64,000 nt of DNA from a virus (IMGVR_UViG_3300028887_000001:156088-220087), one strand, 5' to 3'. Shown: positions 1 to 47,863, counted from the stretch's first letter. The notes: a model not told the origin generated them from the letters alone. Program-made: numbers and translations.

Positions 1-688
1 AACAAAATCATCCCCATAAACCATTGACATTATATTTCCGGATACATTGAATTTACAAGTTGACTTAAAATAAGAATCCTTATAACGTGTTGAATCTGCT
101 TTCCACAATATTTTATCACCAGCAGATACATCAATGGAAACCTCAATATGGTCTGTTCCGGCCATTAACAAGCCACTGTCAAAAAACCAGTCCTCAAACA
201 TTCTGTATTCATCATCGTTGAAACCACCTTGTTTGGTATCATTTTCCTTGGTTCCAACTTGCAAATCTAGAATTTTGCCATCCTCACCACCTGTTCGGCC
301 ACCGCCACCGCAGCCACCGCCACCATCATGTGTGTTAACAGTGGTAAACCAGTTTTTTCCATTATCTAATGAGTAGCTGAAACTCTTAAAATCTTCTTTT
401 GATGTTTTATCATCAAGAGAGAAACTAATAGTTCCGTCTTCAAGTATTTCAAGGGTTAAATAATCGTTAGCATAATCATGTCCTCTTGTTACCGGTTGTT
501 TCAGTAACAGTGGTGACTGTCTCAAATCGATAATTTCTTGTCCTTGTTCGCTAAAGAATGCTTGGAGTTCAGTGCGTTTTCTATCAACACGTGTAACTGG
601 AGAGAATTTAATGTCTCTTAATTCTGCTGTTGTTATAAACGCTTCTGAAGGCTTATAGCCATATGAATCATAATATTGGTCTAACATG
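1..688 (-). CDS. BspA-like LRR protein, N-terminal region (partial, runs off window start); paralog of 33669..34154 plus 33042..33620
   Basis: Hand translation of the minus strand from ATG at 688 gives MLDQYYDSYGYKPSEAFITTAELRDIKF...NVSGNIMSMVYGDDFV, matching MLDNYYDSYGYKMPEHFVTTAEIKKVKF... and ...MSLLYADDFA of the 33-34 kb copy. A poly-Gly stretch is encoded at 286..330. There is no stop codon before position 1. Confidence 0.6.
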
Positions 689-722
689 TATGGTATTATT
701 TATAATAATAAATATTGCCACA

Positions 723-1418
723 CTAATTTTTGTTTCTTTCATTGTCGAATTTGCTTGCAAATCCATGTTTTTCGCAAATATCGTTAAACACCCATCTTTC
801 TATGCATAAATTAATTGGGCTTTCTTGTATTTTTACTTTATCGAATTTAACCCCATGTCCTATTGGGACAGAATCTACTTCTTTATTTTCTCTTAGGTAT
901 TTTACGCCGTTTCTTAATCTTTTTTCATCAAAACCACATTTTTCTTCCAAATATTTCATTATATTGGATTTTTTAATGATATAGTATTCAATTCCTGTTA
1001 TATTTTTTTCTGTGATATCAACCCACTCTGGAAGAAGTTCTTTTTTATTGTGATTATTATTGAATCTATAATACATTTGAACCTCTGCATGTGGGTACAT
1101 TATTATATAATATTTAGTTTTGCTGTTTTTATCAAGAAACCACCCATCAACTTCCTCGCCTTCTCTTGTTATTTGTGAGAGTTCCATTACGTATGTTGAC
1201 AATGCCAGATTTACGTAATGTGTGCAACACTTCTCGTCAGCCGGCTCATGCTCAATCCCAAGTGATGGTATTGTCAAGTAACCATCTATACCACTTCTTT
1301 GTAGTTTACTATCATCACACCTTTTGAAACTCATGCCATTGCAATACATATGCTTATCACAAAACTTTGCAATGGCTTTTTCAATTTCCATGTCTCTTTT
1401 TCTTGTTGATTTATCCAT
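723..1418 (-). CDS. hypothetical protein (231 aa)
   Basis: Long ORF preceded by the conserved promoter motif at 1437..1460; no recognisable domain. Confidence 0.5.
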   Translation of the reverse strand: MDKSTRKRDMEIEKAIAKFCDKHMYCNGMSFKRCDDSKLQRSGIDGYLTIPSLGIEHEPADEKCCTHYVNLALSTYVMELSQITREGEEVDGWFLDKNSKTKYYIIMYPHAEVQMYYRFNNNHNKKELLPEWVDITEKNITGIEYYIIKKSNIMKYLEEKCGFDEKRLRNGVKYLRENKEVDSVPIGHGVKFDKVKIQESPINLCIERWVFNDICEKHGFASKFDNERNKN

Positions 1419-1436
1419 ACGTTTTCATATTAAATT

Positions 1437-1460
1437 CATTGCAAAAGTACTAAAAAAATC
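1437..1460 (-). promoter_or_regulatory. conserved phage promoter motif (TTTTAGTACTTTTGCAATG on the minus strand) carrying Bacteroides-type -7 box TAnnTTTG
   Basis: Forward cattgcaaaagtactaaaaaaatc lies about 20 nt upstream of the 1418 start; the same motif recurs at least 12 times in the window. Confidence 0.6.
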
Positions 1461-1539
1461 TGAATTAGGAAAAAAGTTTGATAAATTTGGTTAATTTTGA
1501 AAAAACAGTATATATTATTGTATAGACATAACATTATAT

Positions 1540-2988
1540 ATGATACCAAAAATAATACACTATTGTTGGATTAGTGGAGAAGAAAACATGCCAGAAGACA
1601 TCAAAGCCTGTGTTGAGAGTTGGCATAAATACCTTCCTGATTATGAGTTCATAAATTGGAATGACAAAAATTTTGACTGGAACATTTGTGAATTCACAAA
1701 ACACTGTAGGGAAAATAACTTATATGCATTCTGTTCTGACTATGTTAGGTTTTGGGCTCTTTACAATTATGGTGGCATATACCTAGATTGCGATGTGATG
1801 GTTTACAAATCGTTTGATGAGTTGCTTAATTTAAAAAGAATTTTAACAAAGGAAATATATTATAAAGAAAACAACTTTCCAGAGGCAGCAATAATGGGTT
1901 GTGAAAAGGGCGATGTGTTATTTGGTAAAGTTATTGAGTGGTATAATAAAACGAAAAAGAGGTTTGATTTAAATAAATTTGTTGTGTCTCCATATGTAAT
2001 GCGTAGCGTTATCGATAAAAATTACAAGGAAAAAGTTGTTTATTCCCTGGAAGATGTAAAAGATGATGAAAACAAGATATATTTCCTTGACGTTAACAAA
2101 TATTTCGATAGCGATAGTGAGGATGTTTTTGCCAAACATAATTTTAAAAATAGTTGGCACACCAATTTAATCAAAAATTTTCTTAAACACTCCAATTTCA
2201 AAATATTTTTATGCGCTCACAAACCGATTGAAAACTTTTTGCCAAGAAATAAAAGATATGTTATATTGGATGTAACAGGAAATGTTGATAACTCCTGCAA
2301 TGACAACTTTCATGAAATAATCGACATATCAAAAGATGAATTTGTTAAAACCCACAATGTTTGTTATAGTGAAGGGGCTGCAATGAGATATTTATATAAG
2401 CACCCAGATTTAATACCAGATTATATTGGATTCGGCCACTATAGAAGGGTTTTCGTAAGATTTATCGGAATGGAAAACTCAATGCCTAAATTTATTGACA
2501 GGAAAAATGCGATAATAAATACTCCGCTTGATTTCACTACAGATTTTAGGATAAATAACAAGGCTGTGGCGAGATACGACCACCCAAGAGAGGATGTAAA
2601 CGCTTTGATTGAGTGTGTAAAAGAAGTTGCTCCAGAATATTGGGACTCTTTTAATGAGTTTCTTAAAGATAAAAATGGTTATTACTGCAACTGCTTTGCG
2701 ATGAAAAAGGATGACTTCCTTGAAATGTGTGAATTCTGTTTCAGGGTACTTGATAGATTCGATGAGAAACAGGGTTATAAAAACAATGAAGATGTGAGAA
2801 AACACATGGAAAAACTAAGTCAGGAAAAGAAATTAAATATAGATAAGGTAGATTGGCAGTCAAGACTTCAGGGTTTTCTGCTAGAATATTTAACAGACAC
2901 CTTTTATCGCCATAAATCTTGGATTGATGGGTGTTGTAAATCACAGGCAAAAATGCCAATTATGAGTGTAAATACAAATATTTTATGA
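1540..2988 (+). CDS. two-domain glycosyltransferase: N-terminal GT32-like DXD sugar-binding domain plus C-terminal putative galactofuranosyltransferase-like domain
   Basis: N-terminus IIHYCWISGEE...YAFCSDYVRFWALYNYGGIYLDCDVMV is the classic Gly_transf_sug / capsular polysaccharide synthesis DXD region. The C-terminal roughly 250 aa (FLCAHKPIENF...GFGHYRR) is shared with its paralog. glf is immediately downstream. Confidence 0.75.
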   Translation: MIPKIIHYCWISGEENMPEDIKACVESWHKYLPDYEFINWNDKNFDWNICEFTKHCRENNLYAFCSDYVRFWALYNYGGIYLDCDVMVYKSFDELLNLKRILTKEIYYKENNFPEAAIMGCEKGDVLFGKVIEWYNKTKKRFDLNKFVVSPYVMRSVIDKNYKEKVVYSLEDVKDDENKIYFLDVNKYFDSDSEDVFAKHNFKNSWHTNLIKNFLKHSNFKIFLCAHKPIENFLPRNKRYVILDVTGNVDNSCNDNFHEIIDISKDEFVKTHNVCYSEGAAMRYLYKHPDLIPDYIGFGHYRRVFVRFIGMENSMPKFIDRKNAIINTPLDFTTDFRINNKAVARYDHPREDVNALIECVKEVAPEYWDSFNEFLKDKNGYYCNCFAMKKDDFLEMCEFCFRVLDRFDEKQGYKNNEDVRKHMEKLSQEKKLNIDKVDWQSRLQGFLLEYLTDTFYRHKSWIDGCCKSQAKMPIMSVNTNIL

Positions 2989-4478
2989 TACCAAAAATAA
3001 TACACTACTGCTGGATAAGCAGTGAAGAAAACATGCCGGAAGACATTAAATCGTGTTTGGAAAGCTGGAAGAAACATCTTCCTGATTATGAGTTCATAAA
3101 CTGGAATGATGAACGATTTGATTGGAACATTTGTGAATTCACAAAATGGCATAGAGAGCATAATGAGTATGCGTTTTGTTCAGACTATGTTAGGTTTTGG
3201 GCTCTTTACAATTATGGCGGCATATACCTGGATTGTGATGTGATGGTTTACAAATCATTCGATGAATTGCTTAATTTAAAAAGAATTCTAACAAAGGAAT
3301 GGACTTACCGTTACAACAACTATCTTGATGCTGCGATTATTGGATGTGAACAGGGGGATGATGCTTTCAAAAAGATTTTAGACTATTATAATAATTGTGA
3401 CGAGCACTTTACAACTGAAAAAAATACAATTGCTCCCCTTATTATGAAATGGTGCTGGTCTGATTATAAATTTAATCCAATCAATAAACTATCAAATGAA
3501 ATTAAGGATGACAAAACAATAAACATATTGAATGTTGATAAATATTTCAGCGTTTCTAGTGATGAATGCTTTGCACAGCATTGCTTTAAGGGAAGTTGGT
3601 GGAGAAAAACTGAAAAAATAAACTGCCTCAAGACAGATAATATAAAAGTGTTCTTGTGCGCCCATAAGCCAATTGAAAACTTCATCCCAGAAGATAAGAA
3701 ATATGTTATTTTGGCTCAAAATAAGGGTATTTCCTATAAAACAAATGAAATCATCGACATATCAGATGATGAGTTTACAAAATCACACAACGTCTGCTAT
3801 GGTGAAGGGTGTGGTATGAGATATTTGTACAACCACCCAGAATTGATACCAGACTACATTTGCTTTGGGCATTACAGGAGATATTTCACGGAATTTGTTG
3901 GGTGTGAGAGGTTTATGCCGCAAATAATTGACAGTTGTGGCGCAATTGTAAAGAAACCGTTTGACCACACAAATGACGATAGGATTTATAACAAAAGGGG
4001 TATGTATTTTGACCACCCAAGTGATGATATAGACATGTTTATTAAATGTGTTAAATATGTTGCGCCAGAGTATTGGTATACATTCAACGACCTTTTAAAT
4101 GACCATTATCAATATGCTTGCAATATCTTCGCAATGAAAAAAGAAGATTTTCTTGAGATGTGCGAAATGTGTTTCAGTGTTCTTGACCATTTTGACAAGC
4201 TTCAGGGTTATAAAAACAATGAGGATGTGAAGAAGAAAATGGAGAAGAATCCATATATACATAACATGCCATTTGGTTTTGAGTGGCAAATCAGGCTAGA
4301 AGGGTTCCTGTTGGAATGGTTAACAGAACTTTATTATAGGCAAAAGTTTGGCGTTGAAAATTGCTATAAAGCAGAAGTTGGTAATTTATATAACAACAAC
4401 GTTAACATAGATGAAAAATATACTAGTAATAGGAAGTGGCTTAACTGGGGCTACACTAGCCAAAAAGCACAAGGATAA
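2985..4478 (+). CDS. paralogous two-domain glycosyltransferase (tandem duplicate of 1540..2988)
   Basis: The first roughly 105 aa are about 90% identical to the upstream gene at protein and DNA level; the C-terminal domain has diverged. ATGA start/stop overlap at 2985..2988. Confidence 0.75.
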   Translation: MIPKIIHYCWISSEENMPEDIKSCLESWKKHLPDYEFINWNDERFDWNICEFTKWHREHNEYAFCSDYVRFWALYNYGGIYLDCDVMVYKSFDELLNLKRILTKEWTYRYNNYLDAAIIGCEQGDDAFKKILDYYNNCDEHFTTEKNTIAPLIMKWCWSDYKFNPINKLSNEIKDDKTINILNVDKYFSVSSDECFAQHCFKGSWWRKTEKINCLKTDNIKVFLCAHKPIENFIPEDKKYVILAQNKGISYKTNEIIDISDDEFTKSHNVCYGEGCGMRYLYNHPELIPDYICFGHYRRYFTEFVGCERFMPQIIDSCGAIVKKPFDHTNDDRIYNKRGMYFDHPSDDIDMFIKCVKYVAPEYWYTFNDLLNDHYQYACNIFAMKKEDFLEMCEMCFSVLDHFDKLQGYKNNEDVKKKMEKNPYIHNMPFGFEWQIRLEGFLLEWLTELYYRQKFGVENCYKAEVGNLYNNNVNIDEKYTSNRKWLNWGYTSQKAQG

Positions 4479-5442
4479 TGGCGATAGAGTAACGGTTATA
4501 GAAAAGAGAGACCATTTTGGTGGAAACATATACACCGAAAATATTGATGGTATATGTGTTCATAAATATGGTGCACACATATTCCACACTTCTGACAAAG
4601 AGGTGTGGGATTTTGTTAACCAATTTGTGCATTTCAATAACTACAGGCATCAGGTTAAAACAAGATATAATGACAAGCTCTATAGTCTGCCAATAAACAT
4701 GAACACATTCAATGAGTTCTTTAACATATCAAATCCAGATGATATAAAACAGGAACACATTGATAAGATTCACGAGGCTCTTTTCCATGGATATAGTTCA
4801 AAACAATGGGGGAAATCAATCGATGAAATAAATAAAGATGTGTTCAAGAGGTTACCATTAAGAAAAACATTCAACAATGATTATTTTGATGATACATACC
4901 AGGGTATTCCCATTGAAGGATATACAAGCTTAATAGAATCACTATTACAGGGCACAAAAAGAAAAACCGGAATAAAGGTAACCAAAGATTTTGATTTCTC
5001 CACATATGATATAATATATAATACAGGGCCAATTGATGAATTCTTTAATTATGAACTTGGAAAGCTTGAATATAGAAGCCTTGAATTCAGCACAAAGAAA
5101 TTAGAAAAGCAATACTATCAAGATTTTGCTGTCATTAATGAAGCCAATTATGAAGTCAAATATACAAGAACGATTGAACATAAACACTTCAATGATACAA
5201 ACAAAAGCTACACAATAGTAACAAAAGAATACCCAAGACCATATAATGGAGACAATGAACCTTATTATACAATTAATGATGATAAGAATAACACATTATA
5301 TGAAAAATACAAGGAATTGGCAAAGGAAAGGTTTCCTAATATGATATTTTGTGGCAGACTTGGCGCTTATAAGTATTATGACATGGACGATGCAATAAGA
5401 GAAGCATTAAACATATTCTCAAAACAAAAAGAGCAACTTTAA
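4411..5442 (+). CDS. glf: UDP-galactopyranose mutase
   Basis: ILVIGSGLTGATLA...IEKRDHFGGN...HKYGAHIFHT...LPINMNTFNEFF...YQGIP..GYT...YTGPIDEFFNYELGKLEYRSLEF...EPYY.INDDKN...GRLG.YKYYDMD is collinear with bacterial Glf along its full length. Confidence 0.9.
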   Translation: MKNILVIGSGLTGATLAKKHKDNGDRVTVIEKRDHFGGNIYTENIDGICVHKYGAHIFHTSDKEVWDFVNQFVHFNNYRHQVKTRYNDKLYSLPINMNTFNEFFNISNPDDIKQEHIDKIHEALFHGYSSKQWGKSIDEINKDVFKRLPLRKTFNNDYFDDTYQGIPIEGYTSLIESLLQGTKRKTGIKVTKDFDFSTYDIIYNTGPIDEFFNYELGKLEYRSLEFSTKKLEKQYYQDFAVINEANYEVKYTRTIEHKHFNDTNKSYTIVTKEYPRPYNGDNEPYYTINDDKNNTLYEKYKELAKERFPNMIFCGRLGAYKYYDMDDAIREALNIFSKQKEQL

Positions 5443-5460
5443 TCCGGTTGCTCTTTTTAT
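5431..5460. terminator. bidirectional rho-independent terminator
   Basis: Stem gagcaac/gttgctc with a T-run, between the converging glf and nuclease genes; the glf stop codon sits in the loop. Confidence 0.6.
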
Positions 5461-5462
5461 GA

Positions 5463-6335
5463 CTAAATCACATCTTTCAACGTGTCAGTAACATCATCAA
5501 CAGGTATCTTATCATACGTTCCGTCTTCTTTAAGCCATACGATTATCCTATGTGTCATTTTATATCCAAGCTGTTCAAGACACAATGAATACAGGCTTAA
5601 TTGTAATGTATAGTGAGACAGTGATTCGTCAACCATATTATCAAATGGCGGCAATAACATCTTTCCATAAGCTCTATTGTATGAATTTGTCAATGATGCG
5701 TTTGTCTTCCAGTCTGCTAAAAATGGCTTTATAATACCATCTTTTCCCCTTGCTGCGAATAACATGTCAAACGTGCCGCAATAATCATTCTTAAGGTGCA
5801 GCGTATCATTATAACAACTATACACCTTTGCCTCAGGCATTACAGGCCACACATTATGGTTATTAAGCATATCTTCGTAAAACTTTGATGCCGCAATCTG
5901 TTTATTGCCATAAGGTATCAAATAGCCATCTTCAAACTGTCTATGTTTTGTGTATTCAGGCATTTCGTCAAATCTACCTTGAAAGAATAGCATTGCAGCC
6001 TCAGAAAACTCATGAACTATTGTTCCATTAGATGTTGATTTAAGATTATTCTCTCTCCATGCACGTTTCAACACCTCTGGGTCAATACCTTCTTTTGCTG
6101 CTTTCTTTATCCTTATTGCATCCCAATCAACCTCTGGCTCAAATTGCTTTAATACAGAGCTAACTGACGGCAATTCTATAGCATCACCATTTGGCTTATG
6201 TAATAGGTATTTATGTGGTTCTTCAAAGAACTCAAGGTCTTTGAATGCGTCTGTTATTCTATCTCGCATTTCCTTAACCTCTGGTGGTTCTGGACACAAT
6301 GCAAGTCTTGCTTCAATATCTGATACGTGTAACAT
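5463..6335 (-). CDS. PD-(D/E)xK family nuclease (RecB/Cas4/YqaJ-like exonuclease fold)
   Basis: Motif GTFDMLFA...FLADWKT is D...(D/E)xK-like; its position fits a phage recombination exonuclease. Confidence 0.5.
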   Translation of the reverse strand: MLHVSDIEARLALCPEPPEVKEMRDRITDAFKDLEFFEEPHKYLLHKPNGDAIELPSVSSVLKQFEPEVDWDAIRIKKAAKEGIDPEVLKRAWRENNLKSTSNGTIVHEFSEAAMLFFQGRFDEMPEYTKHRQFEDGYLIPYGNKQIAASKFYEDMLNNHNVWPVMPEAKVYSCYNDTLHLKNDYCGTFDMLFAARGKDGIIKPFLADWKTNASLTNSYNRAYGKMLLPPFDNMVDESLSHYTLQLSLYSLCLEQLGYKMTHRIIVWLKEDGTYDKIPVDDVTDTLKDVI

Positions 6336-6338
6336 GAT

Positions 6339-6770
6339 TTAAAGTTTGTTTGACAATTCACGCATATTATTTACATAGCATGTTATTGACTTGTTTGGCG
6401 CAATATTATTAACCAACCTCATAATTGCATCAAATGACTTCCTTTCATGCTTTTCCCAAGTCCCTTCATCCAATACAGCAAACACAACATAATCAACAGA
6501 TGTTCCATACATGTTTGCAAGATGTGCAGAATGAACAATTTCTGCAATTGAATATGTCCCCATCATTTCTTTTGTGATTACATAGAGATGGACATTGCAC
6601 TTGTGATTTTTTTCTTCTTCCTCAACTTCCTGGCATTCTGGTGTCCAATCTTTCACCACTGGGTTGAAGTATTCAATACCCTTTTCATCCAAAAGCGGCA
6701 TTAATTCGTCTCTCCATGTTGTTTCGGCACATGTGCCACCCAAAAACATTCTAATTTTAATATTTTCCAT
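6339..6770 (-). CDS. nucleoside 2-deoxyribosyltransferase-like / dNMP N-hydrolase-like fold protein
   Basis: N-terminal KIRMFLGG and a GTYSIAEIVHSA segment resemble the G-T-x-x-E-x-G catalytic Glu region of NDT/Rcl-family enzymes. Only 17 nt downstream of the IMPDH-like gene and 3 nt upstream of the nuclease start. Confidence 0.4.
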   Translation of the reverse strand: MENIKIRMFLGGTCAETTWRDELMPLLDEKGIEYFNPVVKDWTPECQEVEEEEKNHKCNVHLYVITKEMMGTYSIAEIVHSAHLANMYGTSVDYVVFAVLDEGTWEKHERKSFDAIMRLVNNIAPNKSITCYVNNMRELSNKL

Positions 6771-6787
6771 ATAATTATAATTATAAT

Positions 6788-7948
6788 TTATTTATTAATT
6801 GCTGCTTGTTCTCTTTGGCTTAATAATCTTGTTTCAACATTTTCTGGGTTGAAATCGTTTACATCCGTTACATCACAATAAGACATCGCTGATGCGAGGA
6901 AATCATTCATGTTTTCTGTCCACTTTTTTATAGATGTCTTACATTCAAGTATAACTTCCTTACCTTCTGAAGTCCTCTTCTTCTTCCCAAATAAATCAAT
7001 TTGGCCCTGCTTTGATGCCATGCCATAAAACCTTTTATAGAGTTTTTTTACTTGAATTGAACAGACTGGTTCATTCTTAGCATCCAATGATGTAATTTGG
7101 AAAACACCATCATTTTCTTCAATGACAGTATTTTTATCAAATTGGTCAACAAAATTCTTTTCACGAAGCTCAACATGACCTACTGTTGAAAAATAGAATG
7201 TTTCTGCACAAGATTCAATTAGGGAAGATAACAGCCCACCAATCATAACATAATCTGCGCCAAGTGCTAAAGCTTTATTTACATCATCATAATTCCTAAT
7301 ACCACCATCAGCAATAATCTTGGTCACACACTTATAAGATGTAAAAAGGTTCTGAATATCAGATTCAACTTCCTTCTTTTGCTTATATGTTTCATTTATT
7401 AGGGTTGCAATACCCATATGAACCCCTAAATTACTTGCAGAAAGGCAACCAGCGCCAGAACCAATGGCCAACCTAACATAATCAATCCCAGCCCTACAAT
7501 ATTCCTTATATGTTTCTGGATTTGAAATGTTTCCAGTCATCAAAATAATGTTATTGCCATATTTTTCCTTTGCTTGCTTTGCAATTTCAAAAATTGTTGT
7601 TAAATTGCCCTTTGCCAGGTCAATACAAATTTTTGTTTCTGGGTTAACAGATTCATTTTCACTGACAAAAGTTTTGAATTCATTTAATGAATATGAAACC
7701 CAAATACCGCTTTTTACTAATTCATTTCTTTTTTCTATATTTACTGTTCTTGGTATAATTGGAATTATGCCATTGTCTTTAAACACCTTGTAGTTTTTTT
7801 CATTTAATACAGAACTCATTGGTGCTGTGAATATCGGCAACATTCCGTCCTTCTTTGTGTTACACTCAGAACGATGTTCAACATCACTTGTTATGGCGTC
7901 GAGTATGCATACATCACCATATCCATAAGTCATTTCTTCTTTAAACAT
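6788..7948 (-). CDS. IMP dehydrogenase / GMP reductase family TIM-barrel protein
   Basis: PIFTAPMSSV, the GSGAGCLSAS loop containing the catalytic Cys, and ADGGIRNYDDVNKALALGADYVMIGG match IMPDH/GuaC signature regions. Confidence 0.65.
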   Translation of the reverse strand: MFKEEMTYGYGDVCILDAITSDVEHRSECNTKKDGMLPIFTAPMSSVLNEKNYKVFKDNGIIPIIPRTVNIEKRNELVKSGIWVSYSLNEFKTFVSENESVNPETKICIDLAKGNLTTIFEIAKQAKEKYGNNIILMTGNISNPETYKEYCRAGIDYVRLAIGSGAGCLSASNLGVHMGIATLINETYKQKKEVESDIQNLFTSYKCVTKIIADGGIRNYDDVNKALALGADYVMIGGLLSSLIESCAETFYFSTVGHVELREKNFVDQFDKNTVIEENDGVFQITSLDAKNEPVCSIQVKKLYKRFYGMASKQGQIDLFGKKKRTSEGKEVILECKTSIKKWTENMNDFLASAMSYCDVTDVNDFNPENVETRLLSQREQAAINK

Positions 7949-7971
7949 ATCTCAATTCTTTTATAATTTCA

Positions 7972-7993
7972 TGGCAAAGATACTAAAAAAAAA
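7972..7993 (-). promoter_or_regulatory. conserved promoter motif (minus-strand TTTTAGTATCTTTGCC)
   Basis: Forward tggcaaagatactaaaaaaaaa lies about 25 nt upstream of the 7948 start. Confidence 0.55.
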
Positions 7994-8002
7994 TGACATA
8001 AT

Positions 8003-8034
8003 AAAAAAAAGACCCCAAAATTAATTGAGGTCTT
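8003..8034 (-). terminator. rho-independent terminator
   Basis: Minus strand reads aagacc...ggtctt hairpin followed by T8. Confidence 0.55.
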
Positions 8035-8098
8035 GCTATTATTTTAAGAAATTAAAAACCTTATCCAATTGTTACATGGACTTGTTTTCTAGATAACA

Positions 8099-9616
8099 CT
8101 AATATTCACCGGCATCGATTACCATTCTTTTCACATCTTCAACCCAATCATAATATGTACCAAAAATAATTTCTTGATTCCCAAACTCATCTTCAATACA
8201 GGTACATTCTATGATTTTATAATAGTCAGATGTGCCTCTATAGTATAAATCACCATCACCCCCTGTAATAAGATTGAATTTATCACCGTTGTTCAATTGC
8301 TTTGAGTCCCAATATTGTCCGTTCCAATGACTAAGTATGCATTTATAAAGCGTGATTGGAATTTCATCGTTATCAGACAAACCCCTCTGAGCAATAAAAT
8401 CATCACCACCGTTTATTTCTCTATCATAATCAATTAATACACAATTTGATTCACCGGAAACAGAAAGAGAATTAGAGTCAAAATTAAGATTTATTGCAAT
8501 CCACGCTTGTTTTAACTCTGGGAAGTTTATCACTTTATATGTATTTCCAAGAATATTCTCAAAGTCACTAGCATAATCACCACAAATATCTCTAACAAGT
8601 CTTATTGAACACCAAACATCACCAGTGTCAAAGAATTGGAAAACACCATCACTATCTGAAGTAAACCCTTTAATGAAATTGTGTCCAGGTTCGTATTCTG
8701 TATCAGTCCAGAAACCACACATTGTGCTTATACCATTTGCTGATGATGCTGAAATGTATCCACTTGGTGTTGCAAAGAATCCATATAAATCAAGGTTTTC
8801 ATTGCCTTGCCAATAATCAACGCTCTTGAGCATTTTTCCACACACTTCACCTTGTGCATCTTCAATGGAAACGGAATCACCACTGATAACATCATCACAG
8901 ACATCTGCATATGTAAGTAGTTTGTCCCAATCTTCTTGTGTTGGGACTCTCCAAGCACTTAATTCTCTTGCAAGGGCCTCTTTTACTGCCTCCAAACCTT
9001 CTTTTGAATACAATCTACCAAATAGAGAAAATGGTTCATAATGAACAACTCTATAACCTATTTCTGGTTCTTCAAATGAACCAGAACCCTTCTGTTGATT
9101 TTTTTCGTTGTAACCGCCTTTCGGCACAAGTTCATTAACAGTCTTATAGTATCCTGTTTTTTCGACATTTGATATTCCAAGAGGATTACATTCAGTTCCT
9201 GCGCCATGAAGTGTTGAATCGTGTACCGAACCACCTTGCGAATCTTCACAAAGGAAACCACTTATAGTTGTTGAGTGTTCTCCTGATGTATCCGTCCAGT
9301 TAAGTGTTAATATACCATCATCAGACAAGCTTCCGTTTAAATTAATATCAATTGATTGTGGCGTTAATCCAGAAACAAGTTCTTCTAATTTTTCATCAAA
9401 TTCATCACGAACACACGAAATATCCACACTTATCTCATCTCCGTTGTTTCTGATAATGTCAATAATCATGTTTTCGCAATCGAATGTCGCTGCGCTTATG
9501 TCATTATCCTTGAATGCCAGAAAATTATCATCAATATCAGCCGTTGTGAGTTTACAATTCATTGTAACGTCTTCTGGATATGGTGATACGAGTTTATAAA
9601 ACTTTATGCTTTCCAT
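8099..9616 (-). CDS. hypothetical protein (505 aa), possible virion or tail-associated protein
   Basis: Long ORF rich in Gly/Asp/Ser, no enzymatic motifs; forms a pair with the downstream 494-aa ORF. Confidence 0.4.
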   Translation of the reverse strand: MESIKFYKLVSPYPEDVTMNCKLTTADIDDNFLAFKDNDISAATFDCENMIIDIIRNNGDEISVDISCVRDEFDEKLEELVSGLTPQSIDINLNGSLSDDGILTLNWTDTSGEHSTTISGFLCEDSQGGSVHDSTLHGAGTECNPLGISNVEKTGYYKTVNELVPKGGYNEKNQQKGSGSFEEPEIGYRVVHYEPFSLFGRLYSKEGLEAVKEALARELSAWRVPTQEDWDKLLTYADVCDDVISGDSVSIEDAQGEVCGKMLKSVDYWQGNENLDLYGFFATPSGYISASSANGISTMCGFWTDTEYEPGHNFIKGFTSDSDGVFQFFDTGDVWCSIRLVRDICGDYASDFENILGNTYKVINFPELKQAWIAINLNFDSNSLSVSGESNCVLIDYDREINGGDDFIAQRGLSDNDEIPITLYKCILSHWNGQYWDSKQLNNGDKFNLITGGDGDLYYRGTSDYYKIIECTCIEDEFGNQEIIFGTYYDWVEDVKRMVIDAGEY

Positions 9617-9634
9617 ATATTATCTTATAAATTT

Positions 9635-11119
9635 TTAACATGTATAGAATTTAAATCCTTTAATATCCCCAATGAATGTACCTGCAAAGTTCTCTTCAAT
9701 TGGATATATCTTTGTTGGGTTCAACATATAATCTGGCATTATGGTCTCTGCCAATCCTTGTGTTCCTCCACCAAGTGATATATTATATGCAACACCTTCT
9801 TGTTTCTCTTTTATTTCATCCAGAGCATGCAGATTTAATTTTGGTAACTCTGATGTAATGTACTTCAATTTTCCATTAACATAGAACATAATTCTTATTC
9901 CGGTTTCTGATGCCCTTATTTTTACCCTTATTTTCGTCCATACGTCTTCTTTTATGATTCCTGGGTATGAATTACCACTGAGCACCTCATAATGCCACTG
10001 TGGGTCTCCTGAACAGCTTTTAACAAGGAATCTGTACCCTATTGAGCCATCATCATTAATCACGAACGCCAATGCATTATTATAAATGTCATTATATAGG
10101 GTTTGTTCGTCATATGTGTCTGTGTAACCACTTTCAAGTTTATCTATATTATGAACGGTATAACCTGTTGGTGTCCTATCCATATATAGGAAGAGGTTTC
10201 CATTAAATCCATTCTTTTTTGTCTTAAGAACAACAACCTCATTACCTTCATAATTGTGAATTGTGATTCCGCTTGATGTTCTGTCAAATATTAAAAACTT
10301 GTTGTCACTTTCAATATAATCATCATTTGGCGAGAATATATCAAACCCATTTGATGTTTCATATGTTTGTGCGCTTAATTCAATGTCATCATCAACCAAA
10401 TCAAACACAGAATCACCCTCTTCCTCTAATTCGCAATCGCCAAATGTGGTTCCACTTATTTCCAGGCCTTCATAAAGGTAAACCCATTTGTTTTCTGCTC
10501 TTGTACCAATATAGAAGAATATACCCTTATTGTTGGGGTGTGCATCATTTAATGTATTCGTACTTTCTGGTTCATAATTAACCTTTCTTAAATCAAATTC
10601 AAGGTTCCATTCCCCATTTATCTCGCTTGGTAATATGGCATAATCATCATCACTTCTAAAGAAACCCTGATAAAAGCCACCATTTAACTTTATGCTACCA
10701 TCCTCGTTTATTGATGTTGGATAATCATACAGTTGTGTGTTTCCGGTAACGGCATGCAAGTGAAGTCTTGTGTCCCCACTCTCTATCTCATAAGTGCTGT
10801 GAGTGTATATCTGATAGAACTCCCTGTTGGTTATTCTGTCTTTTATGTAAGATATTAAACCGTTATCAACACCAGTGTAACCAATGTTTTCCAATTTTAA
10901 TCCGTGACTACAAGCCTCACTATAAAAATAATCTTCTAAACTCGTTAATTCATTCCCACTTAAACACACATCATTTGTCGTGTCAATAACAACACTTGCA
11001 CAGCTTTCTGACAACACATCGCCACAAGAGCCATGAGAATTTAAATGCATGTCCCAATAATCAGTCTCATCTATATGAGTAATGGAACGCCTTACGTTAT
11101 TTAGAGTATAGTTTGACAT
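9635..11119 (-). CDS. hypothetical protein (494 aa), possible virion or tail-associated protein
   Basis: Long ORF only 18 nt upstream of the 505-aa ORF on the same strand. Confidence 0.4.
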   Translation of the reverse strand: MSNYTLNNVRRSITHIDETDYWDMHLNSHGSCGDVLSESCASVVIDTTNDVCLSGNELTSLEDYFYSEACSHGLKLENIGYTGVDNGLISYIKDRITNREFYQIYTHSTYEIESGDTRLHLHAVTGNTQLYDYPTSINEDGSIKLNGGFYQGFFRSDDDYAILPSEINGEWNLEFDLRKVNYEPESTNTLNDAHPNNKGIFFYIGTRAENKWVYLYEGLEISGTTFGDCELEEEGDSVFDLVDDDIELSAQTYETSNGFDIFSPNDDYIESDNKFLIFDRTSSGITIHNYEGNEVVVLKTKKNGFNGNLFLYMDRTPTGYTVHNIDKLESGYTDTYDEQTLYNDIYNNALAFVINDDGSIGYRFLVKSCSGDPQWHYEVLSGNSYPGIIKEDVWTKIRVKIRASETGIRIMFYVNGKLKYITSELPKLNLHALDEIKEKQEGVAYNISLGGGTQGLAETIMPDYMLNPTKIYPIEENFAGTFIGDIKGFKFYTC

Positions 11120-11160
11120 ATGCCTATTTTATTATAAATATCAAATAGACAACATTATTA

Positions 11161-11192
11161 AAAACAAAAAAACCCACCTCAATGAGGTGGGC
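11161..11192 (-). terminator. rho-independent terminator
   Basis: cccacctc/gaggtggg hairpin with an A-run on the plus strand, which is a T-run on the minus strand. Confidence 0.55.
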
Positions 11193-11210
11193 ATAAAGTG
11201 TTTGTTGGAA

Positions 11211-11390
11211 TTATTTCTCAGCAAGCACGGTGTCAACTGCTACGGTATCAACAGCCACGCTGTCAAAAACCTCTACGCTATCAACGGCAACACTGTCGCT
11301 GTCATTAACACCAGCAGCGTCGGTCTGGTTACCGCAAGCTGCAAAACTCATGGCTACAAACGCCACCATCAAGAATAAAATCTTTTTCAT
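11211..11390 (-). CDS. small lipoprotein (59 aa) with VAVDxV tandem repeats
   Basis: Hand translation gives MKKILFLMVAFVAMSFAACGNQTDAAGVNDSDSVAVDSVEVFDSVAVDTVAVDTVLAEK: signal peptide plus lipobox Cys, and a terminator immediately downstream. It falls below the ORF-track size cutoff. The overlapping plus ORF 11187..11378 is probably spurious. Confidence 0.4.
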   Translation of the reverse strand: MKKILFLMVAFVAMSFAACGNQTDAAGVNDSDSVAVDSVEVFDSVAVDTVAVDTVLAEK

Positions 11391-11445
11391 CGCTTTTAAA
11401 ATTTAAATTAATTATTTTATTCGAATATATAAATATCACTCTAAA

Positions 11446-12570
11446 TCAAAAACCAATTTTTGTTCGATTGTTTGTGTTTCCATTATCTTCAAGGAAATTG
11501 TATACATCACATAGTGGCATTGATTTTGCCAGTGACTTATCAATTGAGAGTTTTTCAAAGAGTTTTTCAACCTTTTCTTTCTCCAAATCCTTGAATTCGT
11601 ATTTAATCTTCATCCTACCCTTTCTGAGTATAGCCTTATCTATATTTTGCAGGTCTGTGTTAAATGTGCAGATGAACTTAAGCTTAAGGCTATCACCAAG
11701 AATTCCGTCAGAAATGTTTAGCAAACTTTGCATTGCTGGGTTGTGATGGTTCTCTCTTGGTTTGAGAAGACTTTCACTATCTTCCAAGACAAACACAGCA
11801 TTCTTACATGAGGAAATGTATTCGATAAACTCTGATGAGTCTACATATGCAAACATGCTTGAATCAATCCAGTAGAACATGACATCACTATTTGTCCCTA
11901 TTAAGTCCCTAATATAAGATGTCTTTCCAGTACCAGGCTTACCATGAAGAATCATTATGCAACTATCGTCCTGATGAATCAACTTATTAATCTTGTCGTT
12001 AATTGGCTTGAAATCATCATTGTAGTTCTCATCAATATTTCCCTTTGGTGTAATTTCCATGTACTTTGTCTCTATGTTTCCCCTTGAATTTCTCAAAACC
12101 CACCTAATTTGAGGTTTAAAATCCTTTTCAACCACGCAATCATATATCTCTTGTGGTATGTCCGGAGTATCCATGTAGAAAACACCATCGTAATATATAA
12201 ACTTATCATTGAAGACTAACTTCCTATCAAGCTTTGTCCTTCTATAATTGTATACCACAGAATCTGGGAACTTCTCGATTATCTTTTCAAGAGTTTTCTC
12301 CAAGTCAATATTCTGGGTCTTCTCACGGTATTCTTCTTCTGTACAATGACTATTGTATAAAGCCAAATCATCACTCTCTGTATAACCCTCAATATTTGTC
12401 GGGTCAATGTTATCGTAAATCCTGTCGCTCAACTGATTAAGATATGGTAACCTGCCAAAATGTTCTATTGCGAACTTTTCAACAACCATCTGGAAAATAT
12501 AACCAATTGTATCGTCACTCTTCCCGACCATCTCACCAATTCTCTTTCTTATGTCTTCAACATTCATCAT
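11446..12570 (-). CDS. AAA+ family ATPase
   Basis: Walker A ILHGKPGTGKTS, Walker B FVLEDSE, and arginine-finger-like KGRMKIK. Confidence 0.7.
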   Translation of the reverse strand: MMNVEDIRKRIGEMVGKSDDTIGYIFQMVVEKFAIEHFGRLPYLNQLSDRIYDNIDPTNIEGYTESDDLALYNSHCTEEEYREKTQNIDLEKTLEKIIEKFPDSVVYNYRRTKLDRKLVFNDKFIYYDGVFYMDTPDIPQEIYDCVVEKDFKPQIRWVLRNSRGNIETKYMEITPKGNIDENYNDDFKPINDKINKLIHQDDSCIMILHGKPGTGKTSYIRDLIGTNSDVMFYWIDSSMFAYVDSSEFIEYISSCKNAVFVLEDSESLLKPRENHHNPAMQSLLNISDGILGDSLKLKFICTFNTDLQNIDKAILRKGRMKIKYEFKDLEKEKVEKLFEKLSIDKSLAKSMPLCDVYNFLEDNGNTNNRTKIGF

Positions 12571-12734: not shown

Positions 12735-13766
12735 TTACTTGCCATCAGCATTTTCTACAATAACAATTCGATTTGATGCGTTTCCGACAGAACCATAACC
12801 AACTGCACTCTTAACATCAACACCCTTTTCCTTAAGGTATTCGGCAACAACATCTGCTCTCTTTTGTGAAAGTTTCTGGTTATAGGTTTTTGTTCCTTCT
12901 GGTGAAGCATAACCAAGAATGTCTACGGAACCAGCAACCTTATCGAGAACTTCCTTTGCTGCATCATTAAGTACATAGCTGTTCTGTGCAAAATTAACAA
13001 CAAATGTGTTATTTACGTATTCAACCTTTTCAACGACCTTTTCCCTAACCTTTGTTACAACAACCCTTTCTGGCTTCTTCTCAAGCGCATCCTTCTGACT
13101 TAGGTTTTCTGAATAAAGTCTGTTAAGCTCTGCCGACATTGCACCAACATCATATACCTTGAAGTGATGTGTTCCATTAGAAGTCTTAAAGTGGTATACA
13201 TAGCCAGCCATAAGAGCAAGTTGTGCGTGTTCCTTGTTGAACTGAACTGTGTTATTGTTCTTCAAGTTCCAATAAACGCCTGGGCTAACAAACAATGTAT
13301 GTGCCTTCTTCTTTCCAAGGTTAAAGTTGAAATCAAGTGCTGTCTTTGCACTGAGGCCATCGCCACTCTTCCAGAAGTGAAGCCATCCCATGCCAACATT
13401 TGTCTTTACCTCAAACAAACGAGGGGTTCCCTTATAACCACAGAAAAGATTATTAAGGTTAACAGTACCGTTTACGGTAAGATTTGTACCCTTTACGAAT
13501 GTCTGTGTCCAGCGTTGGAAATTGTTGTCATTGAAGAACACCTGTGCTTCAACCTCCGCACCAAAAATAGGTGTAAGCTCCTTACCAACCTTAAGACCCG
13601 CTACAGTGTTAAGTGGAAACACACCATCAAAATTGAGAGGTGTTGCCACACCAATTTCTGCACCAGCATAAACGTTGTCAAACAACTTTGCATTCTCTGT
13701 TGCAAGCTGTGCGCTTGCAATCGTCATGGTTGCAAAAGCAACCAAAGTCAAAATAAACTTTTTCAT
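12735..13766 (-). CDS. OmpA-family outer-membrane protein (signal peptide plus C-terminal OmpA peptidoglycan-binding domain)
   Basis: N-terminus MKKFILTLVAFATMTIASAQ. C-terminus NSYVLNDAAKEVLDKVA...ILGYASPEGTKTYNQKLSQKRADVVAEYL is the OmpA_C motif. Confidence 0.75.
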   Translation of the reverse strand: MKKFILTLVAFATMTIASAQLATENAKLFDNVYAGAEIGVATPLNFDGVFPLNTVAGLKVGKELTPIFGAEVEAQVFFNDNNFQRWTQTFVKGTNLTVNGTVNLNNLFCGYKGTPRLFEVKTNVGMGWLHFWKSGDGLSAKTALDFNFNLGKKKAHTLFVSPGVYWNLKNNNTVQFNKEHAQLALMAGYVYHFKTSNGTHHFKVYDVGAMSAELNRLYSENLSQKDALEKKPERVVVTKVREKVVEKVEYVNNTFVVNFAQNSYVLNDAAKEVLDKVAGSVDILGYASPEGTKTYNQKLSQKRADVVAEYLKEKGVDVKSAVGYGSVGNASNRIVIVENADGK

Positions 13767-14503: not shown

Positions 14504-15184
14504 TTAATTTTCAAACCACCAAATTAATTCACTATTAATGCTAACCTTTAATTCCCCCATACTCTTCCACTCGTCCCAATAATCTTCAAGGTATTCGTCA
14601 TCAGACTTATGTATGTCACTGAAGAACTCATCAACATCTGATTCGTTTACTGGTTTAATAATAATGGAGGCGTCGCCATTACAAAACCTTACAATTTTAG
14701 CAGGAATTCCTTTATATTTGATTCTTCTCCCAACACAATTTTTATCGAATTCATATGAACACAAATCTAACGGGTGTTCTGGATATTCTGTCATTTTACA
14801 CTGTGCTTGAGCCACGCCATAGTACATATCCCTTGTTACGAACCTTTCAAATATCTCACCATTCCTTAAGATGTCAATTTGACACCTTGAAGAAGCCTCT
14901 GTTTCATCCCACTTTGTTTTTGATGTTGTTTTTTCAACAACCTTGAAACCCCATTCACAAGCAACACCATCGAATTGAATTAAGTTCTCATATGTTGGTT
15001 CCTCAAATCTAGGACATGCCCATGCATAGTCATGTCTACCACCTATTGAATGGTTATATTCACCATCGTCATCATATGCAAAAAACACCTTATAAGGTTC
15101 TCCATTTACCCTTGCATCCCAACTTAGTTCGTGCAAAACTTTCTTCAGGTCTGTGCTTTCATCTATAAGCCTTATTTCACTCAT
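14504..15184 (-). CDS. hypothetical protein (226 aa), translationally coupled to the Stealth-like gene
   Basis: ATGA start/stop overlap at 15181..15184 with the upstream gene. Confidence 0.45.
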   Translation of the reverse strand: MSEIRLIDESTDLKKVLHELSWDARVNGEPYKVFFAYDDDGEYNHSIGGRHDYAWACPRFEEPTYENLIQFDGVACEWGFKVVEKTTSKTKWDETEASSRCQIDILRNGEIFERFVTRDMYYGVAQAQCKMTEYPEHPLDLCSYEFDKNCVGRRIKYKGIPAKIVRFCNGDASIIIKPVNESDVDEFFSDIHKSDDEYLEDYWDEWKSMGELKVSINSELIWWFEN

Positions 15185-16098
15185 TGTTGTTCCAATATTT
15201 TAGTCATTAAATCTTCCAGAAGTGATTTTGTTTCTGAAACCATTTCTTGCGTTACCCACCATGCGTCATTAATACATTCAACATCGTTTAAGTAATTCAT
15301 TTTACCACCTAAAACGGATTTTAACCAATTATTTAATTCATCATCGCCAACACTTCTAAAACAAAATTTATATGGTAACTTTTCATCAAACACCAATTCA
15401 TTCTTCAAGCCATACATAAGATACAAGTCCATATTCATGTTATTAAAGTATCTTACCGTATGTAATGAACCCATTATAAACCTTTCATATTTGCAATAAC
15501 ATTCTTCACACAGAGATTTCGTCAGTGGCCTTAATGTGTGTTGTGTATAACAAACCTGTGAATAATCACTATTATTTGACCTCCTGTCATAAACCAAATT
15601 TGTTGCATTCGACATGTGTAGGTCATATAAACAATTGTTTGGGCATTTCTTCCAGTTGAAAGACGCTCTCGGCTTGCCATCCTTAAAGAAATATTCTTTG
15701 AACAATGGTTTCATTGGAATCATGTCATCATTTCCGTATATGAAGTATTCAGAAAGACCAGGTATTCTCCACATGAAAAGTTCAATACAAGCCGATGAGA
15801 AGGTTATATAGCCATTCGGCATGAATTCAGACTCATTAACCCTGATAATCCTACCGCTTGATTCATTAATCAATTTAATTGTAGAATCTGGGAGAACCTG
15901 AACGTCTTTACACACCAAATACACCTTATTTATAAAGTTAAGGTTTTTCAGTATCAATTTCAATGTTAGTGTTATGTCTATGTAGTTAGAATTCACATTA
16001 CTATTGTATTCCAGCCCAGTTACATTTTCATATAAATCACGAACATCATCATCGGAATAATCACAATAACTAATGATATAATCTATCGGTTTATCCAT
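15181..16098 (-). CDS. Stealth-family-like hexose-1-phosphoryl transferase candidate (capsule phosphotransferase-like)
   Basis: IDYIISYCDYSDDD (CR1-like), LKLILKNLNFINKVYLV (CR2-like) and FIYGNDDMIP (CR3 NDD-like) resemble the Stealth conserved regions from memory. Needs an HMM check. Confidence 0.4.
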   Translation of the reverse strand: MDKPIDYIISYCDYSDDDVRDLYENVTGLEYNSNVNSNYIDITLTLKLILKNLNFINKVYLVCKDVQVLPDSTIKLINESSGRIIRVNESEFMPNGYITFSSACIELFMWRIPGLSEYFIYGNDDMIPMKPLFKEYFFKDGKPRASFNWKKCPNNCLYDLHMSNATNLVYDRRSNNSDYSQVCYTQHTLRPLTKSLCEECYCKYERFIMGSLHTVRYFNNMNMDLYLMYGLKNELVFDEKLPYKFCFRSVGDDELNNWLKSVLGGKMNYLNDVECINDAWWVTQEMVSETKSLLEDLMTKILEQQ

Positions 16099-28432: not shown

Positions 28433-29512
28433 TTAGCCAACGGAAAGTGGCATTTTTATTGTTGGATAACTCTCATAACCCTCTATTTTTATATCTTCAT
28501 ACTCAAACATGTCAATATCCTTTACAATTGGATTTAATTTCAATGTTGGCAATGAATATTTGTGCGGGTCTCTTGTTAACTGCTCATCAACACCCTCCAT
28601 TTGATTAAGATATATGTGGCAATCACATCCATTCCAGATAACTTCGTCTGGAACCATATTTACACACTGAGCTACCATTGAAAGCAATAAACTTGCTGAC
28701 ATTATGTTTGCCGGTGTTCCTAATGCCATATCCTGACTCCTACACATAAACCATAACGATAAAGCGTATTTTGGACAGCCGTATTCATCCATTGTTTGTT
28801 CTGTTGGTGCCAACCATTCTGGATTAATATTATCCTGGCACCACTCAACCCTTTCCATATGTTCCAATGGTCTAGCATTAAACATGTATATTGTATGACA
28901 TGGTGGCAATGCTACATCGTAAATAACATCAGGGTTATAACCAGTAAGCAACATTCTCCTGTCAAAAGGATTCTTTTTAAGGGTGTTAATTATCATTTGG
29001 ATTTGGTCAACATCATTTTCACCCCAGTGTCTCCATTGTTTCCCATATACAGGCCCAAGGTCACCATAAGTGTATTGAATCTGAACAAGATTTCCGTGGT
29101 AATTCTTTTTTACTGCCAGTTTAATACTCTCCTGATTTTTTACTTTTTCTATAAACTCATCCATACTAATACCGAGTTCAAGAGGAGAATTATTAACAAG
29201 GCTTAGATGCTTTTTTACAAGTTCATTGTAGAACCTATACGCATCAGGTGTCCAGAAATTAACCCCATTATCAATGAGATACTTGATGTTCGTATCCCCC
29301 TTTAGGAACCAAAGCAATTCATGGATAAATCCCTTCATGAACATTTTCTTTGTCGTTAATACAGGAAATCCATACTTTAATTGAAATCTCATTGACATTC
29401 CAAATAAAGATAAAACATCACCACTTCGTGTGTGCTTTAATACACCTTCATTTTTGATTCTCTTGAGACAATCCAGGTATTGAGAATCAACGAAATTACT
29501 TATTCCGCTCAT
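28433..29512 (-). CDS. thyA: thymidylate synthase family enzyme (ThyA fold) with two insertions; dUMP-specific Asn retained
   Basis: LWFLKGDTN, GDLGPVYGKQWR, RRMLLTGYNP, LPPCH catalytic Cys, SQDMALGTPANIMSASLL, CDCHIYLNQ, and C-terminus IEGYESYPTIKMPLSVG are collinear with E. coli ThyA. At 359 aa versus 264 it carries about 50-aa and about 30-aa insertions. Confidence 0.8.
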   Translation of the reverse strand: MSGISNFVDSQYLDCLKRIKNEGVLKHTRSGDVLSLFGMSMRFQLKYGFPVLTTKKMFMKGFIHELLWFLKGDTNIKYLIDNGVNFWTPDAYRFYNELVKKHLSLVNNSPLELGISMDEFIEKVKNQESIKLAVKKNYHGNLVQIQYTYGDLGPVYGKQWRHWGENDVDQIQMIINTLKKNPFDRRMLLTGYNPDVIYDVALPPCHTIYMFNARPLEHMERVEWCQDNINPEWLAPTEQTMDEYGCPKYALSLWFMCRSQDMALGTPANIMSASLLLSMVAQCVNMVPDEVIWNGCDCHIYLNQMEGVDEQLTRDPHKYSLPTLKLNPIVKDIDMFEYEDIKIEGYESYPTIKMPLSVG

Positions 29513-37056: not shown

Positions 37057-37083
37057 ATTGCTTATGTTATAACATATAAATAT

Positions 37084-37117
37084 CAAAAAAGGAGGAATTA
37101 AATCTCCTCCTTTTCTT
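37084..37117 (-). terminator. rho-independent terminator
   Basis: ggagga/tcctcc hairpin with T-runs. Confidence 0.5.
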
Positions 37118-47754: not shown

Positions 47755-47794
47755 TTTTTTTTTAATTATATATAATATATAACAATTTTTTATT

Positions 47795-47830: not shown

Positions 47831-47863
47831 CACTTAACAAACAAAAAAATTATGAAAAACTAC

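Follow-up and report, generated by a model that had tools for sequence, protein, structure and literature searches.

The 64,000-nucleotide stretch IMGVR_UViG_3300028887_000001:156088-220087 (hereafter the window) carries, at positions 1540-5442, a cassette of three overlapping genes with which a phage very probably makes its own galactofuranose (Galf)-containing glycan. Two of these genes, here called GT-A (1540-2988, + strand, 482 amino acids) and GT-B (2985-4478, + strand, 497 amino acids), encode paralogous, predicted soluble glycosyltransferases in which a GT32-like module with a DXD motif is fused to a GT111 (DUF4422) module, while the third, glf (4411-5442, + strand, 343 amino acids), encodes a UDP-galactopyranose mutase. 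Each component family is already known, and phage glf genes are common, occurring in at least 90 GenBank phage records that include Rhizobium, Agrobacterium and Aeromonas phages. What appears to be new is a GT32-GT111 fusion specific to phages, which resembles the bacterial enzyme WbbM with its modules in reverse order and a different partner module, together with its tandem duplication, its modular diversification and its spread over several metagenomic phage lineages. Literature searches found no paper on a phage GT32-GT111 fusion with its duplication and spread, and none linking crAss-like phages with a galactopyranose mutase. A preliminary description of this DNA, made from the sequence alone, had proposed a glf gene behind two tandem paralogous two-domain transferases in an overlapping, phage-borne operon, and had asked whether the trio travels together in related phages; these points are borne out here, and some details concerning the relatives and the history of the transferases are revised.

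The glf product is unambiguously predicted to be a genuine UDP-galactopyranose mutase. It matches PF03275 with 206 bits (cut-off 26.3), PF13450 with 75.8 bits and TIGR00031 with 329.3 bits, which exceeds the cut-off of 303.75, and it aligns with the Escherichia coli mutase 1I8T (phmmer, E = 1.1e-97); its identity to Glf of E. coli K-12 is 50%. The Rossmann motif GxGxxG that binds flavin adenine dinucleotide is present as GSGLTGA at residues 8-14. In addition, the sequence blocks HKYGAHIFHT, P(V/L)R (PLR), YQGIP, YTRxIEHKHF (YTRTIEHKHF), EPYY (EPYYT) and GRLxxYKYYDM (GRLGAYKYYDM) are kept in comparison to E. coli Glf, with the conserved Arg, Tyr and His positions that form the active site in mutase structures. 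Relative to the E. coli protein, there is a 23-residue deletion in the helical domain.

Both transferases resolve into the same two modules. In Pfam searches, GT-A matches PF04488 (Gly_transf_sug) with 54.9 bits, PF05704 (Caps_synth) with 47.4 bits and PF14393 (DUF4422) with 77.6 bits, and GT-B matches these families with 55.7, about 44 and 55.5 bits, each match exceeding its gathering cut-off (25 bits for PF14393). In both proteins the GT32-like DXD match extends over approximately residues 3-195 and the DUF4422 match from residue 221 to about 420; the modules of GT-A are bounded at about residues 1-210 (GT32-like) and 217-470 (GT111/DUF4422). The motifs of GT-A are D83-C-D85 in the first module and HKP (227-229), Y276-S-E278, HYRR (300-303) and NCFAMKK (384-390) in the second, and all are intact in GT-B as DCD, HKP, YGE, HYRR and NIFAMKK. 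The DXD motif (D83-x-D85) is invariant in 34 of 34 aligned family members. Judged by sequence, the N-terminal module is called only GT32-like, as it may belong to CAZy family GT32 or to a neighbour such as GT44. With isoelectric points of 5.5-6.2 (6.2 for GT-A) and no hydrophobic or transmembrane segment, GT-A and GT-B are predicted to be soluble, acidic, cytoplasmic proteins.

DUF4422 corresponds to the CAZy family GT111, a glycosyltransferase family whose sole characterised member is the N-terminal UDP-Galf transferase module of Klebsiella pneumoniae WbbM, which acts with a C-terminal GT8 galactopyranosyltransferase in polymerising the disaccharide repeat of O2a (PMC12269835). WbbM (PDB 6U4B) is also the top sequence match for the C-terminal module of GT-A (phmmer, E = 1.7e-10), and the HKP, YxE, HYRR and NxFxM(K/R)K motifs of both window transferases align with those of WbbM. 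An AlphaFold2 model of GT-A, based on an alignment of 34 sequences (predicted local distance difference test score 89.5, predicted template modelling score 0.82), likewise has WbbM as its top PDB match in Foldseek (E = 4.7e-10, 292 columns, root-mean-square deviation 4.9 Å, 21% identity). The N-terminal module of the model resembles the DXD enzymes of GT-A fold YeGT, SetA, PaToxG and Och1, and the chlorovirus PBCV-1 protein A64R (2P72/2P73) is also among its matches. Among viral predicted structures, the fold search matched only single GT-A-fold modules and no full-length analogue. The C-terminal family is thus one of galactofuranosyltransferases, as the preliminary description had stated; the relative, however, is WbbM and not WbbI, which it had named. 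E. coli K-12 WbbI (L013:4066-5058) has no Pfam match at E ≤ 1e-3, and its hhalign probability against the phage GT111 profile is 0.1. A profile of the phage clade of GT111 finds 2608 representative proteins at E ≤ 1e-3 and 26 at E ≤ 1e-30, indicating that the phage modules form a small, divergent clade.

Like WbbM, the phage enzymes combine a GT111 Galf-transferase and a retaining DXD transferase of GT-A fold in one polypeptide and occur with glf, and they would share its logic, in which Galf and a pyranose are added alternately. They differ in that the order of modules is reversed, with the GT-A-fold module first, and the partner is GT32-like rather than GT8. They are also shorter (482-497 residues versus chains of about 606) and only about 21% identical to WbbM. 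The structure of WbbM from 2020 reportedly has a trimerising stalk; neither a coiled-coil stalk, in the GT-A model, nor a GT8 partner, in the Pfam searches, was found for the phage enzymes. Furthermore, the cassette is phage-encoded, has two tandem copies, and lacks both an ABC transporter and WbbN/WbbO priming genes in its neighbourhood. Among about 50 open reading frames (ORFs) of the window, of at least 120 residues, that were run against Pfam, and in the related loci, no WbbM-type ABC transporter or priming transferases were found, although host-encoded partners are possible. Another compact system is pamABC of Kingella kingae, which likewise joins a mutase (PamB), a GT111 protein (PamA) and a second transferase (PamC, a GT2 galactan synthase) in making a Galf polymer (PMC12269835). 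It differs in that PamA has a single module and an undefined role, the polymerase is of the GT2 family, the genes are chromosomal and the product is attached to lipopolysaccharide (PMC12269835).

GT-A, GT-B and glf are co-oriented, with gene blocks on the − strand on either side of the trio. The stop codon of GT-A and the start codon of GT-B overlap as ATGA, and the 3' end of GT-B overlaps glf by 68 nucleotides, both as first described; a transferase-glf overlap is kept in relatives, with 56 nucleotides in the related contig L001 and 26 in L004. On this arrangement, the three overlapping genes are read as one operon. The sole non-coding gap of the cassette is the AT-rich intergenic region upstream of the operon (1419-1539, + strand), where its promoter is presumably located. 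Two matches to the Bacteroidota-type promoter motif TAnnTTTG lie upstream of the operon, at 1482 and 1492. As this motif occurs in the window at its background frequency (97 found, 97 expected), no promoter is claimed from them.

Overall, GT-A and GT-B share 59% amino acid identity. Over the first 104 codons, they are 89% identical in amino acids and 85% in nucleotides, and over the first 320 nucleotides 84% identical (268/320), rather than the approximately 90% nucleotide identity first estimated. The GT111 modules, at 56.5% amino acid and 62% nucleotide identity, are diverged as the preliminary description had stated, but divergence peaks in the GT32 module, over its second half (residues 106-215), with 37% amino acid and 51% nucleotide identity. 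Synonymous-codon identity at identical residues reaches 0.74 in the N-terminal block versus 0.51-0.60 elsewhere, a pattern compatible with some gene conversion. However, the N-terminal block is nearly invariant at the protein level across all 34 family members, suggesting that purifying selection explains most of the similarity between GT-A and GT-B there. Additionally, GT-A and GT-B each have a 94%-identical orthologue in L001, so the duplication predates the split between the window and L001 and is not very recent.

The GT32-GT111 architecture is found in about 45 proteins among 5.8 billion, all of them metagenomic. A glf gene adjoins GT32-GT111 genes in the window, in L001-L003, in L004/L005/L010 and in L008, and this adjacency in four independent contexts is the one observation that points to UDP-Galf as the donor used by the phage GT111 modules. 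L001 is syntenic with the window and has an additional GT32-only gene. In L004 and L010, the order is PolB, a stand-alone GT111 gene, a GT32-GT111 gene, glf, a GT32-GT111-GT32 gene, four other genes, and a GT32-GT111 gene whose GT111 motifs are lost, and the cassette of L004 comprises at least seven transferase modules. L008 has a single transferase and glf, which share the strand of a crAss-type capsid block and directly follow it. The exceptions to this co-travelling of glf and the GT32-GT111 fusion are L006, where a GT32-GT111-sulfotransferase gene adjoins replication genes and the surrounding sequence shows no glf, and L011, a 20-kb contig in which nucleotide-metabolism genes surround a single transferase and glf does not occur.

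From lineage to lineage, the cassette varies in copy number and in the domains of its transferases. The sulfotransferase fusion, P0021 (L006, 6742-8856), is a GT32-GT111-Sulfotransfer_2 protein of 704 amino acids, which suggests that some of these phages may make a sulfated Galf-containing glycan. Other architectures of the family, represented among P0002, P0004, P0007, P0010 and P0131, are GT32-GT111-GT111, GT32-GT111-GT32, GT32-GT32-GT111 and GT2-GT111. In the subclade comprising P0030-P0034 and P0038, the DXD motif is kept and the HKP and HYRR motifs are lost (NCEK, for example, replaces HYRR), and the GT111 module of these proteins is probably inactive and kept for another role. One of them, P0031, is encoded at L004 16247-17677, L009 10001-11431 and L010 983-2413.

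Sequence identities between the related loci are mosaic. The transferases of the window and L001 are 94% identical, while glf, the exonuclease and the IMPDH-like gene next to the cassette are 76-79% identical; compared with L004, the exonuclease is 89% identical and the transferases 57-63%. These values suggest recombinational exchange of the cassette between phages. Judged by helicase similarity and by the one contig with a crAss-type capsid gene, the cassette appears to have spread over several metagenomic phage lineages. Among GenBank phages, positions 1-12000 of the window have no megablast match, and tblastn with GT-A gives partial N-terminal matches only, with no record covered to 80% or more. 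GT-A has no close relatives in IMG/VR, where an alignment-based scan found 50 loci; in each of them the match is confined to the N-terminal module, and one of the 50 has glf nearby. The GT32-GT111 fusion is thus missing from both GenBank phages and IMG/VR in these searches.

The gene content of the window looks viral, and the phage would be a large one from gut or rumen. Its helicase, Lon-like protease, exonuclease and glf match the phage families phrog_1967, phrog_4871, phrog_298 and phrog_9677, respectively, and the window also encodes SbcC, a thymidylate synthase, a T4 gp1-like deoxynucleoside monophosphate (dNMP) kinase, a sigma factor, an HNH endonuclease and one tRNA. The helicase is closest to those of the Bacteroides phages DAC19-23 and SJC03, at 38%. 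A protein with the sequence of GT-B (P0011, 100% identity) is known from a metagenomic contig of 348,671 bp (JGI/ENA), which makes a jumbo phage a possible source of the window. That contig size would also fit a bacterial fragment, and no capsid, portal or terminase was recognised within the 64-kb window, so that the cassette might instead be an ordinary part of a bacterial host's capsule or O-antigen locus. This origin is very improbable in view of the phage-family matches of the neighbouring genes, SbcC among them, the helicase relationship, and the related cassette on the L008 contig with its crAss-type capsid gene. No flippase, polymerase, initiating transferase or sugar-nucleotide pathway gene flanks the trio. 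A scan of 185,579 bacterial species genomes (GTDB), moreover, gave more than 566 relatives, and for each of the 80 best of these the match covered the N-terminal module only; the full-length GT32-GT111 fusion occurred in 0 of 80, and neither glf nor a GT111 module lay within 6 kb in any of the 80. In cellular genomes, the N-terminal module is most closely related to GT32 proteins that stand alone, encoded by Bacteroides, Phocaeicola, Prevotellaceae and Lachnospiraceae.

For the function of the cassette, the reading slightly favoured here is that of a self-contained phage module for a Galf-containing glycan that is assembled in the cytoplasm on an acceptor other than DNA. In a first step, well supported by the sequence, Glf would turn host UDP-galactopyranose into UDP-Galf, a donor of which the host may provide too little. 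The C-terminal GT111 module would then transfer Galf from UDP-Galf, while the N-terminal GT32-like DXD module, as a retaining, metal-dependent enzyme of GT-A fold, would transfer a hexose from a host nucleotide sugar, as family membership and fold suggest for both. By analogy with WbbM, the two modules may alternate, each enzyme adding or polymerising a hexose-Galf disaccharide unit, and the disaccharide-repeat polymerase first proposed is on this analogy a reasonable reading. Since the differences between the paralogues are concentrated in the half of the GT32 module on the acceptor side (37% identity), GT-A and GT-B probably form different linkages or divide priming and extension between them. 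The glycan would finally be built on its non-DNA acceptor in the cytoplasm and end up exposed on a surface.

The soluble, acidic character of the transferases, with no export partner nearby, leads to the expectation of cytoplasmic assembly. When pamABC, which combines glf with Galf-transferases, was placed in E. coli, only intracellular galactan was formed (PMC12269835), and this result, together with the lack of transmembrane segments in the phage enzymes and of an exporter among the scanned window ORFs, favours a cytoplasmic acceptor. Several observations point to a glycan and not to DNA, namely the relatives with extra modules, the cassette of at least seven modules in L004, a Stealth-family gene in the window and the canonical pattern of the window's thymidylate synthase. 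The cassette also behaves like a surface-antigen locus, with rapid module shuffling, variable copy number and exchange between phages. As acceptors of a non-DNA glycan, phage proteins and lipid-linked precursors of the host are about equally likely. Phage (virion) proteins lead by a narrow and tentative margin, and the position of the L008 transferase-glf pair right after the crAss-type capsid block is a hint towards the virion.

Virion glycosylation systems such as those of the mycobacteriophage Che8 type and of PBCV-1 (A64R, A111/114R) likewise employ soluble, virus-encoded enzymes of GT-A fold, some with several modules, for decoration of the capsid in the cytoplasm; A111/114R has three modules (PMC7826918). 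Sequence similarity between these systems and the phage enzymes is remote. To our knowledge, none of these systems contains GT111 or glf.

Several points weigh against a cytoplasmic Galf glycan on virion or other non-DNA acceptors. Polymerisation, as opposed to the addition of a single disaccharide, is argued by analogy with WbbM only, and a coiled-coil stalk like that of WbbM is missing from the predicted GT-A model. The cassette has replication and nucleotide-metabolism genes as its neighbours in the window, L004, L006 and L011, four of the five lineages, and such surroundings would fit DNA modification or an early takeover of the host more readily than decoration of virions. We know of no report of a glycosylated virion for any Bacteroidota phage. 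Finally, the scans cover 64 kb of a genome of maybe about 349 kb, and a pathway to a hydroxylated base or an exporter could lie elsewhere in it.

The position among DNA and nucleotide genes bears on DNA hypermodification, in which the transferases would place Galf-containing mono- or oligosaccharides on a hydroxylated phage base, with Glf as the source of the donor, and so protect the DNA from host nucleases. A 2026 paper has proposed a precedent in Rhizobium phage RL38J1, whose DNA carries hexosylated 5-hydroxycytosine with galactose nearest the base and whose phage-encoded UDP-galactopyranose mutase is the suggested source of UDP-Galf (PMC13326640). The DNA-glycosylation cluster of RL38J1 and other Pootjesviridae thus resembles the present cassette in joining a phage mutase with phage glycosyltransferases (PMC13326640). 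The 90 GenBank phage records with glf and the T4 gp1-like dNMP kinase of the window would also be consistent with a DNA target. So would two neighbours in the − strand block at 5463-7948, which encodes an IMPDH/GMP-reductase-like protein (386 amino acids), a PD-(D/E)XK exonuclease and a nucleoside-2-deoxyribosyltransferase-like protein (143 amino acids): the IMPDH/GMP-reductase-like gene is kept across rearrangements, and the deoxyribosyltransferase-like gene is present in the window and L001.

DNA hypermodification is nonetheless considered unlikely. Thymidylate-synthase homologues that make hydroxymethyl- or hydroxy-pyrimidines are marked by N177D, L143D/E or D169N, and RL38J1 has a D169N homologue that makes 5-hydroxy-deoxycytidine monophosphate (PMC13326640). 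The sole thymidylate synthase homologue in the window (28433-29512, − strand, 359 amino acids) is, in contrast, canonical at L143, C146, D169 and N177, and a homologue of the kind that marks DNA glycosylation in T4, RB69/DLP3 and RL38J1 was not found in the 64-kb window. The scanned window ORFs include neither a TET/JBP enzyme nor a DNA methyltransferase. The transferases of RL38J1 are of other types, resembling alpha-glucosyl/mannosyl-transferases and UDP-GlcNAc 2-epimerase, with no mention of GT32 or DUF4422/GT111 (PMC13326640), whereas those of the window are GT32/GT111. In addition, GT-A and GT-B are acidic, and the sulfotransferase fusion and the cassettes of as many as seven transferase modules resemble assembly lines for complex glycans more than machinery for decorating bases. 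A more specific version holds that the GT32-GT111 enzymes and Glf put Galf-containing chains on the phage's own DNA, with an acceptor supplied through the IMPDH/GMP-reductase-like protein, joined in the window's lineage by the deoxyribosyltransferase-like one, rather than through a thymidylate-synthase homologue. It carries a still smaller probability, but if it were true, two glycosyltransferase families never linked to DNA would join nucleobase hypermodification.

A second alternative to glycosylation of phage proteins is remodelling of the host surface, in which a host undecaprenyl-linked precursor of capsule, O-antigen, lipooligosaccharide or O-glycan would be extended with Galf-hexose units and exported by the host, thereby blocking superinfection by other phages or altering recognition. 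Two-module, shuffled transferases are typical of lipid-linked, ABC-transporter-dependent polysaccharide assembly as in WbbM, and the stand-alone GT32 proteins closest to the N-terminal module come from bacteria such as Bacteroides and Prevotellaceae. The window also encodes an OmpA-like outer-membrane protein (12735-13766, − strand, 343 amino acids) with a beta-barrel-like N-terminal part and an OmpA C-terminal domain, which may be a host-envelope-modifying factor, and a capsule-type phosphotransferase of the Stealth family (15181-16098, − strand, 305 amino acids; PF11380 Stealth_CR2, 61 bits). The latter has weak PDB matches to the catalytic domain of GlcNAc-1-phosphotransferase and to CpsY. 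Stealth-type hexose-1-phosphate transferases build phosphodiester-linked capsules. A similar host-surface role has been suggested for a glycosyltransferase of the Bacteroides 'Gratiaviridae' phages (PMC8008677).

Host-surface remodelling is nevertheless a doubtful prospect, although better placed than DNA modification. No flippase, ABC transporter, initiating transferase or ligase lies near the cassette in the window or in the related loci, and neither a flippase, an ABC transporter nor a further sugar-nucleotide enzyme was found by Pfam among the scanned window ORFs. The transferases have no membrane anchor, and the E. coli experiment with glf and Galf-transferases yielded galactan inside the cell only (PMC12269835). 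Nothing in the window indicates lysogeny, and it is temperate phages that typically bring about seroconversion.

If a phage-specified glycan is indeed made, a family of gut or rumen phages would have its own UDP-Galf supply and rapidly shuffling, polymerase-like transferases. Galf is absent from mammals and strongly antigenic. Such a glycan could shape competition between phages through changes of the host surface, or virion stability and the interactions of virions with the immune system or mucus, or, if placed on DNA, it could give resistance to restriction. For GT111, with its one characterised enzyme, the compact soluble phage versions would be convenient material for work on the specificity of the family, and the variants in module order, the inactive-looking subclade and the sulfotransferase fusion are useful natural material for comparison. 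The cassette is furthermore a concrete, testable case for the role of the many glf genes encoded by phages.

Several further features of the window and its relatives stand out. The IMPDH/GMP-reductase-like protein keeps the cysteine of its GSGAGC loop. Its gene and the exonuclease gene adjoin the transferase cassette in the window, L001, L004, L009 and L010 despite rearranged order, with transferases on either side of them in L004, and the deoxyribosyltransferase-like gene lies between the two in the window and L001 only. In L009, a 397-residue protein with a Cas12f1-like TNB domain (TnpB-like) is encoded at 5482-6675, a few kilobases from the transferase cassette. Compared with E. coli ThyA, the window's thymidylate synthase has insertions of about 30 and 25 residues after W80 and of about 12 and 21 residues past the catalytic Cys.

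The Stealth-family gene constitutes a second glycan-building gene of the same phage, and its end is overlapped by 4 nucleotides by a 226-residue ORF without a match (14504-15184, − strand). A DUF6492 protein (47002-47844, − strand, 280 amino acids, 45.7 bits) has no relative among solved structures. Three long ORFs on the − strand, of 1285 (58455-62312), 590 (35314-37086) and 494 residues (9635-11119), have no Pfam or PHROG match, and the first has no tblastn match in GenBank phages. A 505-residue protein with the Fibrobacter succinogenes major paralogous domain (PF09603) is encoded at 8099-9616 on the − strand, and it is also present in L001.

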